A stretch of DNA of 41,681 nucleotides. Source: an uncultured Acidimicrobiia bacterium. GTDB taxonomy: Bacteria; Actinomycetota; Acidimicrobiia; Acidimicrobiales; AC-14. Positions 33,707 through 39,131 of the stretch are shown here, in pieces (position 1 is the stretch's first letter; the number at the start of each line of letters is the position of its first letter). The translations under genes were made by a program, and so were the position numbers. Where the stretch lies: contig CAWIIV010000002.1 in assembly GCA_963836205.1 (NCBI GenBank), positions 1-41,681 on the forward strand, written 5' to 3'. The notes beneath the pieces were generated by a model. It was not told the DNA's origin and did not search any database. It saw only the letters and a program-made list of their open reading frames with translations.

Positions 33707-33728
33707 CGAATGTACGTTCGGCTACACT
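33707..33728 (+). promoter_or_regulatory. LexA/SOS-like box plus -10 element (leaderless)
   Basis: CGAATGTACGTTCG (one mismatch to CGAAC-N4-GTTCG), then TACACT 6 nt before ATG 33735. Confidence 0.7.
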
Positions 33729-33734
33729 GATCCC

Positions 33735-33914
33735 ATGACCGACGAGCCGATCGAACACAGACAGGATATCCAGCGAGCGACCGAAGGCAAGAGCCTCGAC
33801 CACGTTGGACACGCCCCGCCGCCGCGTGCAATCCCGAGCGAGCAGGTCGCGGTCTTGTTTGCACCGACCGTCCCGGCGTCGGTGACTCCTGTTTCAGCTA
33901 CCGATAAGGACTGA
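33735..33914 (+). CDS. Small Pro-rich peptide A, 59 aa
   Basis: MTDEPIEHRQDIQRATEGKSLDHVGHAPPPRAIPSEQVAVLFAPTVPASVTPVSATDKD; paralogous to peptide B with many synonymous differences. Confidence 0.75.
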   Translation: MTDEPIEHRQDIQRATEGKSLDHVGHAPPPRAIPSEQVAVLFAPTVPASVTPVSATDKD

Positions 33915-33937
33915 TCCCGGGTAAGGGCCGTCCGCCA

Positions 33938-34035
33938 ATGACGCCGCTTATTGCCATCGCCTTCGACACCTTCCTCGCCCCGACTCTCGAAGCTGGGCTA
34001 GCGGAACGTCGAAGGGCGTCGGTGGTACGCGTGCG
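33938..34035 (+). pseudogene. Truncated paralog of the 5' end of the DUF6338-like gene
   Basis: AIAFDTFLAP...AGLAERRRASVVR vs AVAFVIFLAP...AWLTEQRQASVRR. Confidence 0.65.
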
Positions 34036-34082
34036 TGTCATCACCCCTGCGGTGGCAATGGGCCAGCTTGTACCCTCCCAGT

Positions 34083-35908: not shown

Positions 35909-35963
35909 TTCCAAATTTGCCGGATGTCGGCCAATGATGTCGAGAGTACGGCTATTGGACGAC

Positions 35964-35977
35964 GGAACAAGTGTTCG
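35964..35977 (+). promoter_or_regulatory. LexA/SOS-like box upstream of the caspase-helicase gene
   Basis: GGAAC-AAGT-GTTCG, a perfect GAAC-N4-GTTC core in a 127-bp intergenic gap. Confidence 0.6.
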
Positions 35978-36035
35978 TCAGATCGGGTCGGACCTGCGAC
36001 AATGAGTACATGAAACACTCTGCAAAGTGGAGCGC

Positions 36036-39000
36036 ATGACTGACGCCAGCTTTCGAGGTTTGTTCGTTGGCATCGACCGATACGACGACTCCCGGGTGCC
36101 CTGGCTAGCCGGGGCGGCGAGGGACGCGCACGCTCTTCACGCGCTATTCGCCGACACTCTCGGCGAGGCCGCCGCTGGGCTGCTCACCGACGAGGCGGCG
36201 ACCGCCGCCGGGATCCGCGACGAGCTTCAGCGGTTGGCCGATGAGGCGTCTCACGACGACGTCATCGTCGTGACTTATGCGGGCCATGGTTCGGAGGATC
36301 ACCGAATTGTCACCTTTGACGCAGACGTGGACCGCTTGGCGGACACGTGCATCAGCCTCGAGGAGCTGGCGGATCTTGTGGCGGCGATCCCTGGCAGGAC
36401 GCTTCTGTGTGTTCTCGACTCCTGTTTCTCTGGCGGTTTCGGTGCGCGGGTTCTCGCTGGCGGGCTGCGGCCCCGCAAGCTTGGCAACGATCCCGTGGCC
36501 GAGGCACTAGCCCGATTCACTGGCTTCGGTCGGTTGGCGTACACAGCATCGGCAGCGAACGAGGAAGCGCATGAGTCGCCTCGTCATGGGCACGGCCTCC
36601 TCACATTCCGGTTGCTGGAGGCATTACAGGGTGCGCCAGAGATCCTCGACGGCAAGAATCTTAACCTTCTGCGAATGCTTGAGCACGTCACACGCGCGGT
36701 ACAGGCGGACGCCCAGCAGATGGGTCGACAGCAGACACCAACCCTTCGGGGCCAAATTGATGGCGCACCTCTCTGGCCGGTGTTTCGGCCCGGACCTCGC
36801 TACGGCGCGCTGTTCCCCGATCGGGTTCGTCCTGCCGCCACGTCCGATCTCGCCAGCTTGCTTGCGTATGGGTTCACCAAGCCAGTGCTCGAAGCCTGGG
36901 CGGAGAACATCTCCAGCCTAAACGGCCTGCAAGTGAGCGCGATCAACGACTTTGGCCTGCTCGACGGAAACAATCTAGTTGTGACTGCGCCGACCTCCTC
37001 GGGGAAGACGATGATCGGGGAGCTCGTGGCGTTGCAAACGGCCTTGCGACGGGAGCGTTCAATCTTCCTGCTCCCGATGCGGGCGCTGGTCAATGACAAG
37101 TTCGAACAGTTTACCCGAGTCTACGAACCCTCGGGCTTCCGCACGATTCGAGCGACCGGCGAGCACAGCGACGACATTCCAGCGTTGCTGCGCGGCCAGT
37201 TCGACATAGCGCTCCTGACGTACGAGACGTTCTCCAACATAGCGCTCGGAAATCCCCATGTGCTGAGCATGGTTGCCACTGTGGTGATCGATGAAGCACA
37301 GACTCTGACCGACTCGTCACGTGGCTCCAACCTGGAGTTCTTGCTTACGATGCTGAATAACCAACGCGGCCGGACCGGCTCGCCACAGATCATCACCCTG
37401 TCGGCCGTAGTCGGAGACATGCGAGGGTTGGAGCGCTGGCTTGGCGGACGTCGTCTTCATACCGACATACGTCCAGTACCACTGATTGAAGGCGTGCTCG
37501 ACCATAGCGGATCGTACCGTTACGTGGATGAGAGTGGGCATGAGCAGATAGATTCTCAATTTGTCTTGCCGCTATACGACAATGGTAGTCGACGCATCTT
37601 GATCCCGCTCGTACGGCGACTCATGGACGAAGGCAAGAAGGTCATTGTCTTTCGCCAAAGCAAAAGCGAGGCGGTCGCCTGTGCCGTCTATCTCTCACAG
37701 GCCCTCGGCCTTCCTTCCGCCAATCGCGCACTCGAACAACTTGCTGAGGACGATATCTCGACCAGTACCCGCGCACTTCATCGGACCCTGAACGCGGGCG
37801 TAGCGTTCCATAACACCGATCTTGACCGCGACGAGCGACGAGTGGTCGAGGTTGAGTTCCGCGATCCCGACTCGGCGGTCCGGGTCGTCGTGGCGACACC
37901 GACATTGGCGATGGGAGTCAACACTCCAGCCGCAGCCGTTGCCATCGTCGGACTCACACACCCCGGTCGAACGCCAACGCCGTATACCGTCGCCGAGTAC
38001 AAGAATATGGTTGGCCGAGCCGGGCGCCTCGGGCTGGCCGAGCGTGGCGAGTCCTACCTCATACCCGAGGGTGCGCTCGATTCGCACCGGGCTTGGGCCG
38101 GCTACATCAACGGGCGGCTCGAGGATCTTGCGTCACGGCTGGTTCCCGACGGGGATCCCCGTTCACTGATGCTGCGTGTGCTTGCCAGTTATCCGCCCGA
38201 TGCTGTTGGGGTCGTAACTGAGGACGACGTCATCTCGTTCCTCGATTCGAGCTTCGCCGCCTTTCAGGCGCGGGAAGGCGGGAGCGCCCAGTGGAACGAG
38301 CAGCAGCTTCGTCACGGCTTCGAACCACTGATCGCCGCGAGCCTGATCGAGTCGGATGGTGCCGGCTACCGGCTGACGGCGCTCGGTCGGTTTACCGGCG
38401 AGTCGGGTGTCCACGTCGACTCCATCGTTCGTCTAGTGCGTGGGCTGCGTAGCTGTGCGGGCAATCTCAACTCCGTCGGGCTGGTTGCCGCTGCGCAGCT
38501 GACGAACGAGCTGGACGACGTCTTCCTTCCTGTCGACCCCAGAAAGGTGAACACCGAGGTGCCACGCTGGCCCCAGGTGCTGGCTCAGCAGGGTGCGCCG
38601 CATGTTCTCATCCAGGCTCTGCAGCACACGGCAAGCGACCTGAGACAGGCCGTCTCCCGCTCAAAGCGGGGTGCCGCGGCGGCGATGTGGATTGCTGGCG
38701 TTCCGATCGAGACAATCGAGCTCGAACTGACTCGGCACTTGCCTCAGCGGGGTGGTGTTGCCGGCGCCGTCCGTGCCATTGCTGATCGCACCCGGGACCT
38801 CCTTCCTGCGGTCGCCGCCGTCATCGGAGAGTTGGTGCCAGATGCGGCGAACGACGATCTCGTTAGCCGTACGATGCTGCGTCTCGAACTTGGCGTTCCT
38901 GTCGATATCGTCGACCTCGTACGTGCCACTGACGTGCAGCTCGCTCGTCGGCAGTGGCTGGCACTAGTCGAAGCGGGGCTAGCGACGGCTCGTCAGGTCC

Positions 39001-39131
39001 GTGACGCCGATGATGAACAGCTGAGCGCAGTTCTTCGCTCGTCTGCGGCGGCCAAGGAACTCAAGGCCGCGGCAATTCAGGTCGCGGCCGGGTCAATTGA
39101 GGAACTTGTGCTGCCTGTTCCCTCGGAATGA
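36036..39131 (+). CDS. Caspase-like (peptidase C14) domain fused to a Ski2/Hel308-like SF2 helicase
   Basis: LFVGIDRY, YAGHG (His84), LDSCFSG (Cys130), HGLLT..LLEAL, QTP; then APTSSGKT, PMRALVNDK, DEAQ, LSAV, FHNTDL, ATPTLAMGVN, MVGRAGR, winged-helix LTALG, HhH-like C-terminus. Confidence 0.92.
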   Translation: MTDASFRGLFVGIDRYDDSRVPWLAGAARDAHALHALFADTLGEAAAGLLTDEAATAAGIRDELQRLADEASHDDVIVVTYAGHGSEDHRIVTFDADVDRLADTCISLEELADLVAAIPGRTLLCVLDSCFSGGFGARVLAGGLRPRKLGNDPVAEALARFTGFGRLAYTASAANEEAHESPRHGHGLLTFRLLEALQGAPEILDGKNLNLLRMLEHVTRAVQADAQQMGRQQTPTLRGQIDGAPLWPVFRPGPRYGALFPDRVRPAATSDLASLLAYGFTKPVLEAWAENISSLNGLQVSAINDFGLLDGNNLVVTAPTSSGKTMIGELVALQTALRRERSIFLLPMRALVNDKFEQFTRVYEPSGFRTIRATGEHSDDIPALLRGQFDIALLTYETFSNIALGNPHVLSMVATVVIDEAQTLTDSSRGSNLEFLLTMLNNQRGRTGSPQIITLSAVVGDMRGLERWLGGRRLHTDIRPVPLIEGVLDHSGSYRYVDESGHEQIDSQFVLPLYDNGSRRILIPLVRRLMDEGKKVIVFRQSKSEAVACAVYLSQALGLPSANRALEQLAEDDISTSTRALHRTLNAGVAFHNTDLDRDERRVVEVEFRDPDSAVRVVVATPTLAMGVNTPAAAVAIVGLTHPGRTPTPYTVAEYKNMVGRAGRLGLAERGESYLIPEGALDSHRAWAGYINGRLEDLASRLVPDGDPRSLMLRVLASYPPDAVGVVTEDDVISFLDSSFAAFQAREGGSAQWNEQQLRHGFEPLIAASLIESDGAGYRLTALGRFTGESGVHVDSIVRLVRGLRSCAGNLNSVGLVAAAQLTNELDDVFLPVDPRKVNTEVPRWPQVLAQQGAPHVLIQALQHTASDLRQAVSRSKRGAAAAMWIAGVPIETIELELTRHLPQRGGVAGAVRAIADRTRDLLPAVAAVIGELVPDAANDDLVSRTMLRLELGVPVDIVDLVRATDVQLARRQWLALVEAGLATARQVRDADDEQLSAVLRSSAAAKELKAAAIQVAAGSIEELVLPVPSE

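Follow-up and report, generated by a model that had tools for sequence, protein, structure and literature searches.

The Hachiman defense system, composed of the nuclease HamA and the Ski2-like helicase HamB, senses DNA damage or DNA intermediates, ATP hydrolysis releases its effector, and protease fusions exist (PMC12799240). Proteases fused to sensors were reported to activate a neighboring nuclease or pore peptide (PMC12799240; bioRxiv 10.1101/2025.11.14.688446). The architectures of prokaryotic Schlafens comprise 55 types and 558 unannotated clusters. Their catalytic motif is Ex4(E/D)xK, 97.1% of them carry a fused putative sensor domain, and two of seven tested members defend against phages, one of which, RorSlfn5, is a phage-activated tRNase (PMC13056530). 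Here, a genomic island of an uncultured Acidimicrobiia bacterium was analyzed, in which genes for two small peptides (pepA and pepB), a DUF6338 membrane protein, a Schlafen (AlbA_2) nuclease and a caspase-helicase fusion lie behind three LexA-like boxes. The analyzed stretch, termed the window, is the complete contig CAWIIV010000002.1 of 41,681 bases, which belongs to a genome of 4.05 Mb in 25 contigs with 71% G+C.

The genes and all of their spacings were found as described in a first-pass annotation made from the DNA letters alone (Table 1). The genes are co-directional and tightly spaced, with six bases between the pepB stop codon and the GTG of the DUF6338 gene, and the ATG of the AlbA_2 gene at 35018 shares its A with the DUF6338 stop codon TGA (35016-35018), giving the TGATG overlap that had been noted. 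The three LexA-like boxes at the promoter positions were recovered, and Pfam searches returned the proposed domains, namely DUF6338 (1.6e-19), AlbA_2 (5.1e-11) and Peptidase_C14, DEAD and Helicase_C within one protein. The same annotation had interpreted the locus as a single SOS-regulated module, a cascade with the helicase as sensor, the caspase as switch and the Schlafen nuclease or membrane protein as effector. The SOS part of this claim is supported by the sequence evidence described below; the single module is not, as co-occurrence was negative in the loci sampled. We hold with moderate confidence that the locus consists of three independent cargo units in one acquired island, each with an SOS box, which would share one LexA alarm and not form one fixed machine. 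Independent cargo gathered in one island had been the annotation's own fallback, and it fits better once a shared LexA switch is added. Unit 1 would be pepA alone behind box 1, unit 2 the tightly coupled operon of pepB, DUF6338 and Schlafen nuclease genes behind box 2, and unit 3 the caspase fused to a Hel308-type helicase behind box 3.

Table 1. Position of the island features in the window (aa, amino acids; nt, nucleotides; ORF, open reading frame; HTH, helix-turn-helix).
Feature	Position	Strand	Basis and remarks
tRNA-Ser (anticodon cga)	33174-33262	+	ARAGORN; left edge of low-G+C island
LexA-like box 1	33707-33720	+	CGAATGTACGTTCG; 2 nt on, -10-like TACACT (33723-33728); pepA ATG 7 nt after hexamer
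pepA, 59 aa	33735-33914	+	ORF list; pepB paralogue; hydrophilic, proline-rich, apparently monocistronic
LexA-like box 2	34083-34096	+	CGAATGTACGTTCG; 3 nt on, -10-like TACCAT (34100-34105); pepB GTG 8 nt after hexamer
pepB, 58 aa	34113-34289	+	ORF list; pepA paralogue; GTG start, first gene of operon
DUF6338 membrane protein, 240 aa	34296-35018	+	Pfam PF19865; GTG start
Prokaryotic Schlafen (AlbA_2) nuclease, 296 aa	35018-35908	+	Pfam SLFN_AlbA_2; N-terminal Slfn domain, C-terminal helical bundle
LexA-like box 3	35964-35977	+	GGAACAAGTGTTCG; 20 nt 5' of -10-like GACAAT (35998-36003)
Nine-codon upstream ORF (MKHSAKWSA)	36010-36039	+	Read from sequence; ATG 7 nt after GACAAT; stop overlaps caspase-helicase ATG (ATGA)
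Caspase-helicase	36036-39131	+	Pfam, PADLOC, NCBIfam; caspase (Peptidase_C14, residues ~1-240) fused to full-length Hel308/Ski2-type helicase (~290-1013)
Two overlapping ORFs, 353 aa and 289 aa	39491-41309	+	Weak HTH matches (353 aa); weak AbiEii nucleotidyltransferase match (289 aa)

The host LexA motif and the island boxes

Perfect copies of the motif CGAAC-N4-GTTCG occur at 26 sites in the host genome, and five control patterns of the same composition gave 0 to 6 sites. Among the genes that follow the perfect sites, a scan of 81 adjoining ORFs identified recA, lexA (with two boxes), dnaB, five genes of the DUF222 type, and genes for a radical-SAM protein, a DNA methylase and an HD protein. 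Because perfect sites precede recA, lexA and dnaB, the host uses the classical actinobacterial LexA motif. Each of the five DUF222 genes (L001, L003, L017, L019 and L023) has a perfect box in front of it, some with near-identical flanks, and these genes look like a repeated family of SOS-controlled elements in the host genome.

Each island box matches nine of the ten specified positions of the host motif and contains the exact core GAAY-N4-GTTC. This core is present in only three places of the window, which amount to four matches by count as the palindromic box 3 is found on both strands. Shuffled windows contained 1.25 matches on average and 8 of 100 reached four, so that the box count is weak evidence and the weight rests on placement. 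All three boxes occupy the three intergenic gaps of one 2.3-kb stretch, upstream of co-directional genes, and for all three the distance from a -10-like hexamer to a start codon is 7-8 nt. The reading of the -10-like hexamers relies on the TANNNT rule. A scan for consensus sigma-70 promoters between 33300 and 39600 detected no site, and the hexamers and short start distances would fit leaderless transcripts. At box 3, the start codon in question opens the nine-codon ORF, which may be leaderless itself and coupled to the caspase-helicase gene.

Boxes 1 and 2 are identical at 15 of 15 positions (CGAATGTACGTTCGG), and the DNA upstream of each aligns poorly. The peptides encoded behind them are 60% identical, with a ratio of nonsynonymous to synonymous substitutions (dN/dS) of 0.33 at a dS of 0.85. 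A box that was kept identical while its surroundings diverged would represent a footprint inside the genome. Among 71 homologous loci, two (L030 and L044) have a perfect box upstream of the caspase-helicase gene. These boxes lie at distances of 36 and 51 nt from the start, a position similar to that of box 3, and as in the window a -10-like hexamer of the CAAT type comes after each of them; for relaxed sites (one mismatch, or a perfect 12-nt core) the background is 0.02 per 260 nt.

Several observations weigh against SOS control and would be in keeping with another explanation, in which the boxes are chance or relict palindromes or sites of another regulator and the genes ordinary defense cargo, constitutive or otherwise regulated. 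None of the island boxes is a perfect 14-mer, as each carries one mismatch. One-mismatch sites number 322 in the host genome, with the mismatch at position 4 in 202 of them, and as a class they are mostly G+C-driven noise; therefore, the specific variants of the island were examined one by one. The CGAAT-type of boxes 1 and 2 shows no genome-wide enrichment with six sites in total, of which two lie in the island and two, chance-like, inside coding sequence. The remaining two are found at the start of a DprA-family gene and upstream of an operon with an IMS-family polymerase, which we take to be imuA'-imuB. In the lexA promoter region, the two perfect boxes flank a box of the GGAAC-type, the variant of box 3; the presence of the island variants at the imuB-type operon and near lexA argues for operators. 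Boxes 1 and 2 represent a single duplicated event and not two independent ones, yet the exact box was kept in diverged paralogous promoters, and all three boxes are set against -10-like hexamers. A clear box is restricted to the two loci mentioned; 32 of the 71 have a G+C content of at least 0.62. The other 69 have none, including the closest relatives examined (L026, L028, L031, L032, L034 and L037). Taken together with the shuffling result on one side, and with the perfect boxes of L030 and L044 and the damage-type promoters that DUF6338 relatives carry independently (see below) on the other, we regard the explanation without LexA operators as unlikely. SOS control of the island units is likely, with the boxes as putative LexA operators, because they match the host motif at nine of ten positions, the box was kept in diverged paralogous promoters, perfect boxes occur at two caspase-helicase homologues and DUF6338 homologues have damage-type promoters.

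Genes for regulators of the DNA-damage type were seen next to some caspase-helicase homologues. A gene for a LexA-like S24 repressor lies directly upstream in L076 (2434-3093), and genes for IrrE (M78) peptidase/HTH proteins lie upstream in three other loci (L032:5690-6835, L048:1475-2423 and L077:5217-5990). Mobile elements, however, frequently carry LexA, IrrE and HTH genes anyway, which reduces what these neighbors can contribute in favor of SOS control.

Occurrence and partners of the encoded proteins

The caspase-helicase has 1034 amino acids, and its ORF is open from a GTG at 36027. Pfam detects Peptidase_C14 (3.2e-15), DEAD (3.4e-22) and Helicase_C (6.7e-9), and the caspase domain scores 56.9 bits against PF00656 (cut-off 21.4). 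His84 and Cys130 are invariant in 27 caspase-helicase sequences; from the motif positions (G-H-G, D-x-C-F-S-G), we take them to be the catalytic dyad. The N-terminal part is accordingly predicted to be a Peptidase C14 caspase fold with a His-Cys dyad. Helicase motifs I (GKT, 323-325), II (DExQ, 419-422) and VI (GRxGR, 660-664) are invariant in the same 27 sequences, and in the match to the Hel308-type NCBIfam model NF002654 (1.2e-74), residues 290-1013 span positions 19-704 of the 739-position profile. As the score of 252 bits is far below the equivalog cut-off of 887, the protein was not filed as Hel308 proper; it is predicted to be a Hel308/Ski2-like superfamily 2 (SF2) helicase with motifs I, II and VI and C-terminal accessory domains. 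Its solved relatives are Hel308 (9.8e-48), Pol theta (6.9e-37) and HamB (8.6e-18), and the best PADLOC matches are HamB models that cover parts of the helicase core only (4.6e-30). Homologues at E <= 0.001 number 1428. Among the best 120, 111 have 1001-1060 amino acids and nine are shorter (630-987), and 107 carry both caspase and helicase Pfam domains. Source records give them no name beyond 'DEAD/DEAH box helicase' or 'caspase family protein'. The gene was not recovered at E <= 1e-100 from 400 further genomes belonging to the class of the host, and its distribution is sporadic. No paper on caspase-helicase fusions was found in the literature searched, although supplements of the cited papers may list some.

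The genomic context of 81 caspase-helicase loci was obtained, eight near-duplicates of which were left out of both Pfam neighbor scans. Searches by tblastn with pepA, pepB, DUF6338, AlbA_2 and the two downstream ORFs were negative in all 81 loci. DUF6338 or AlbA_2 Pfam domains were absent from 106 upstream ORFs (the two nearest called ORFs, 61 loci) and from 99 downstream ORFs (54 loci). According to the first-pass annotation, its cascade would fall if caspase-helicase homologues never occur together with AlbA_2 or DUF6338 genes and no neighbor is cleaved or required; on co-occurrence, this is the outcome in the loci sampled. The neighbors are defense and mobile genes, including restriction-modification, AbiE, TIR, SAVED-CHAT, CBASS SMODS with a four-transmembrane effector, RES, integrases and resolvases.

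Distant caspase-helicases do have recurrent upstream neighbors. In 11 loci, including two near-duplicate pairs (L042, L047, L060, L071, L072, L083, L085, L093, L096, L098 and L106), a protein of about 200 amino acids without Pfam or NCBIfam match is encoded upstream, at a distance of 11-25 nt in nine loci; L047 (98 nt) and L093 (159 nt) have wider gaps. The L083 protein is a fusion whose additional C-terminal part contains a nuclease-like motif of the D...ExK type, and the 200-amino-acid protein may be an effector or adaptor of the caspase-helicase system. AlbA_2 was considered as a stand-in for this partner and rejected (hhalign probability 0.8%). Six further loci, including one near-duplicate pair (L035, L036, L038, L039, L075 and L100), carry a gene with an Mrr_cat restriction-endonuclease domain on the same strand, at a distance of 14-111 nt upstream, a layout that recalls nuclease-helicase pairs such as HamA-HamB. 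The clade of the window's caspase-helicase has neither upstream partner.

These neighbors bear on the possibility of one functional cascade, in which the helicase senses damage or infection, the fused caspase is switched on and cleaves Schlafen, DUF6338 and/or the peptides, and the effector is released. The genes of the window are co-directional with operators of the same type, and published sensor-fused proteases activate their neighbors (PMC12799240; bioRxiv 10.1101/2025.11.14.688446). While upstream partners exist for distant caspase-helicases, they are typically 11-25 nt away, whereas the gap between the AlbA_2 and caspase-helicase genes measures 118 nt and contains a separate box and -10-like hexamer, and the AlbA_2 protein is unlike the 200-amino-acid partner. 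The absence of a terminator-like site between the two genes suits a cascade, but the 81 loci contain no relatives of the peptides or of the DUF6338 and AlbA_2 proteins, both DUF6338 and the AlbA_2 subfamily are found elsewhere without a caspase-helicase, and the peptides are hydrophilic and not pore-like. A cascade of this kind is very improbable.

The Schlafen protein scores 43.6 bits against its Pfam family (cut-off 25.3), and its homologues begin at the methionine of ATG 35018. The structural model (predicted local distance difference test, pLDDT, 94.2) suggests a Slfn/AlbA_2 nuclease fold, since Foldseek matched its N-terminal domain to SLFN13 (E 3.1e-5, probability 1.00), SLFN11, SLFN12, SLFN14 and the SAMD9 tRNase, with E values from 3.1e-5. 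E23, D28 and K30 are invariant in 49 AlbA_2 sequences, and the catalytic Ex4DxK motif is thus intact in the window's protein. The family of about 295 amino acids has 179 matches in several phyla, with 39-50% full-length identity except for one match of 74% and one partial match of 55%. A search of 400 further genomes from the host phylum did not detect its subfamily and recovered only relatives of 25-29% identity in open frames of about 420-445 amino acids; in a second phylum, 1 of 381 genomes has the subfamily. Its closest relatives are metagenomic. The sole other subfamily locus seen in context (L149) has a TIR gene alongside and no DUF6338 gene. Viral contigs contained no relatives of the protein. 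SLFN11 is reportedly linked to DNA damage, and a Schlafen under damage control in the window would echo this.

The DUF6338 protein is a full-length family member above the gathering score: it matches PF19865 with 70.7 bits (cut-off 26.5), residues 6-215 corresponding to positions 5-204 of the 205-position profile. Its AlphaFold model, of moderate quality (pLDDT 65.8), shows three long helices at the N-terminus followed by a small beta-barrel of five strands at the C-terminus, for which all top Foldseek matches are Sm/LSm/Hfq barrels, although weak (best E 4.3e-3). DUF6338 scores above cut-off in 15 of 401 genomes sampled across the phylum, and no relatives of the protein were found in viral contigs. 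The window's protein is a diverged member with 15-29% identity to the others. For 14 other loci, 150 of the 151 ORFs of at least 110 amino acids were scanned; AlbA_2 was absent within 1.5 kb in all 14, and a peptide relative was absent as well. Frequent neighbors elsewhere are repair genes, namely UvrD, RadC, PolA, DnaE2 and methylpurine glycosylase. In L113, a perfect LexA box lies 348 nt upstream of DUF6338, before a leaderless 88-amino-acid ORF that precedes it, and a further such box lies before dnaE2; in L116, the start of DUF6338 is preceded at 11 nt by a box with one mismatch. In mycobacteria, the damage promoter that acts independently of RecA has the form tTGTCRgtg-8 nt-TannnT (PMC5656591). 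Used as a regular expression, it matches 23 times in the 4.05-Mb host genome and not in the window. This RecA-independent (PafBC/ClgR-type) motif is located directly upstream of DUF6338 in L113:1452-1473, L116:1455-1476, where it abuts the LexA-like box, and L118:2034-2013 (-), with an ambiguous case in L120:2050-2029 (-). L120 and the methylpurine glycosylase neighbor both come from the unpublished genome G401, on which these two points rest. Judged by these promoters, DUF6338 seems to be inducible by DNA damage in several actinobacteria. No paper on a link between DUF6338 and DNA damage was found in the literature searched. In L108 (2182-2319, -) and L110 (about 1325-1493), the nearest relatives of the window's DUF6338, proline-rich ORFs of 45-55 amino acids, beginning MPKSREPQ... 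and MPEKPKPPPP..., have their ends 1-7 nt ahead of the DUF6338 start codon, a coupling similar to that of pepB. Such an ORF could encode a polyproline leader or a partner peptide.

The repair genes next to DUF6338 and their damage promoters raise the possibility that the island serves DNA-damage physiology and not phage defense. The helicase would then restart or process stalled forks, with the caspase as regulator, while DUF6338 would function at the membrane or in an SOS checkpoint and the peptides would be SOS-induced modulators. Even though the helicase is nearer to Hel308 and Pol theta than to HamB by the E values given above, and Hel308-type NCBIfam models span residues 290-1013, the neighbors of caspase-helicases are overwhelmingly defense and mobile-element genes. 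The gene is, moreover, sporadic and missing from all 400 other genomes of the host's class, and prokaryotic Schlafens have experimentally been shown to be defense effectors (PMC13056530). This alternative seems quite unlikely to us.

The peptide ORFs are considered genuine coding sequence because of the dN/dS of 0.33 and the existence of four small homologues, all metagenomic, of 57-96 amino acids, which an exhaustive profile search retrieved (E 3.6e-11 to 9.5e-10). The core common to the homologues is TEGKSLDxVGxAPPP...Q[VI]xxLF[AE]P. Neither peptide has a match in Pfam, PADLOC, NCBIfam, PHROGs, a word-indexed protein search, the ESM Atlas or viral contigs. The Q[VI]xxLF stretch recalls what we take to be the beta-clamp-binding motif; a complex prediction of host DnaN with the peptide alignment, run without controls, gave a score of 0.19 (mark 0.32), which tells in neither direction. 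Members of two different clusters of peptide homologues (P0247 and P0248) list the same source with a longest contig of 16,361 bp, so that a pair of such peptide genes may be present in another genome. A 'GKSLD' match upstream of the DUF6338 gene of L108 was rejected as a peptide relative and attributed to chance, as its position is within the 5' leader, ahead of an ATG with a good ribosome-binding site.

Independence of the units is supported by the absence of peptide, DUF6338 and AlbA_2 relatives from all 81 caspase-helicase loci, by the absence of AlbA_2 (within 1.5 kb) and of peptide relatives from all 14 other DUF6338 loci, and by L149, which has no DUF6338 gene. This part of the reading is countered by the composition of the sample, as the co-occurrence loci exclude the nearest homologues (the 80%-identical caspase-helicase P0002 and the 74%-identical AlbA_2 protein P0122 on a 59.5-kb contig), and a lineage-specific partnership of the island genes outside the loci sampled is possible. 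Further, the context of the AlbA_2 subfamily rests on L149 as the single other locus, and read-through from AlbA_2 into the caspase-helicase gene is possible given that no terminator-like site was found between them.

If three independent cargo units share one alarm, LexA would repress all of them. RecA would be activated by DNA damage, also by the damage or single-stranded DNA that phage replication or prophage induction produces, and self-cleavage of LexA would switch on the three units together. The helicase half may then read abnormal DNA such as 3' tails or stalled forks and license the caspase half, which would cut cellular or partner proteins and cause growth arrest or death. The Schlafen nuclease would stop translation by cutting tRNA or other RNA, and DUF6338 would act as a damage-inducible membrane protein. 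The peptides would be conserved small proteins, with pepB translationally coupled to DUF6338.

Should the boxes work in this manner, defense-type genes would be wired straight into the host LexA switch, and damage or phage replication would arm several effectors. The large caspase-Hel308 fusion family, the recurrent tie of DUF6338 to DNA-damage promoters and repair genes in Actinobacteria, and a Schlafen nuclease putatively under DNA-damage control each provide a lead. A wider interpretation is conceivable, if doubtful: the SOS response would serve as one alarm for infection and damage alike and would arm several effectors of suicide or arrest at once (a caspase driven by a Hel308-type sensor of DNA structure, a Schlafen nuclease and a damage-inducible membrane protein) as a bacterial counterpart of animal Schlafen/caspase damage death, the caspase-Hel308 fusion would represent a widespread antiviral or damage-death system, and DUF6338 would be a new member of the actinobacterial damage response.

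Setting of the island

The G+C content is 0.57-0.68 from about 33.3 kb to the end of the contig (0.57-0.65 in the island region) compared to about 0.71 elsewhere in the genome, and the decrease begins directly 3' of tRNA-Ser(cga). The low-G+C island next to tRNA-Ser is regarded as horizontally acquired. A second copy of the tRNA-Ser 3' end (attR) was not found downstream within the window, and the right edge is therefore placed outside the window, whose contig stops at 41681. Directly after the tRNA, a 20-nt unit (TGTCGCGAGACATCCCGGAC) is present in two tandem copies (33268-33310), the second of which is 95% identical; these units may relate to integration. A 105-amino-acid ORF between the tRNA and box 1 (33340-33657, -) has no Pfam match and may be the remnant of a mobile-element gene such as the tail of a transposase or integrase.

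Downstream of the caspase-helicase gene, the 289-amino-acid ORF matches AbiEii at 4e-4 in Pfam (20.8 bits, under the cut-off of 22.5) and at 6.2e-4 in PADLOC, and the 353-amino-acid ORF, which would be the AbiEi-type regulator, has only weak HTH matches. The two ORFs are possibly an AbiE-like pair, separate from the main finding. In L026, whose caspase-helicase homologue is 74% identical, a clear AbiEi/AbiEii pair is encoded upstream of it in the opposite orientation; this pair shows no similarity to the window's pair by tblastn.

Comparison with described systems

The helicase half of the fusion resembles Hachiman in being a putative SF2 helicase of the Ski2/Hel308-like type. It differs from the protease variants of Hachiman (PMC12799240), as the caspase is fused to the helicase and not, as a trypsin-like domain, to HamA, and the helicase is nearer to Hel308 than to solved HamB. 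HamA/DUF1837 was found neither in the window nor in the 106 upstream and 99 downstream ORFs of the homologous loci, and the locus is therefore not a member of Hachiman. With archaeal Hel308/Hjm and the helicase domain of Pol theta, the helicase half shares the full-length Hel308-type match, the best solved relatives and intact motifs I, II and VI. In contrast to archaeal Hel308/Hjm, the window's protein has an N-terminal caspase, its family resides in defense islands with sporadic distribution, and its score is below the cut-off.

Protease-effector modules (EACC1, Pepco, MBL and canu; PMC12799240; bioRxiv 10.1101/2025.11.14.688446) likewise have a caspase-like protease on a sensor domain. The best NCBIfam match of the caspase is of the EACC1-associated type (2.3e-22), with 79.5 bits under the cut-off of 140. 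Neither an EACC1-like nor an MBL-like neighbor was found, pepA, pepB and their neighbors having no NCBIfam match, and the locus does not classify as an EACC1-caspase module. A further difference is that the island peptides match no family and are absent from the 81 homologous loci. By analogy, the caspase-helicase may work like the sensor-fused proteases and the damage-sensing helicase of Hachiman.

The Schlafen protein corresponds to described prokaryotic Schlafens (PMC13056530) in its predicted Slfn/AlbA_2 fold, the invariant Ex4DxK motif, the order of N-terminal nuclease and C-terminal non-catalytic domain, and its defense neighborhood. It deviates from them in its C-terminal helical bundle, which has no family match, and in being encoded downstream of the genes for a peptide and DUF6338, within an operon that has a LexA-like box in front. 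Finally, the island boxes share with the actinobacterial LexA/SOS regulon (operator TCGAAC-N4-GTTCGA), which the host possesses at recA, lexA and dnaB, the palindrome core, nine of ten specified positions and an apparent location over putative -10/-35 regions. Unlike the repair genes of this regulon, the putative targets in the island are horizontally acquired defense-type genes.

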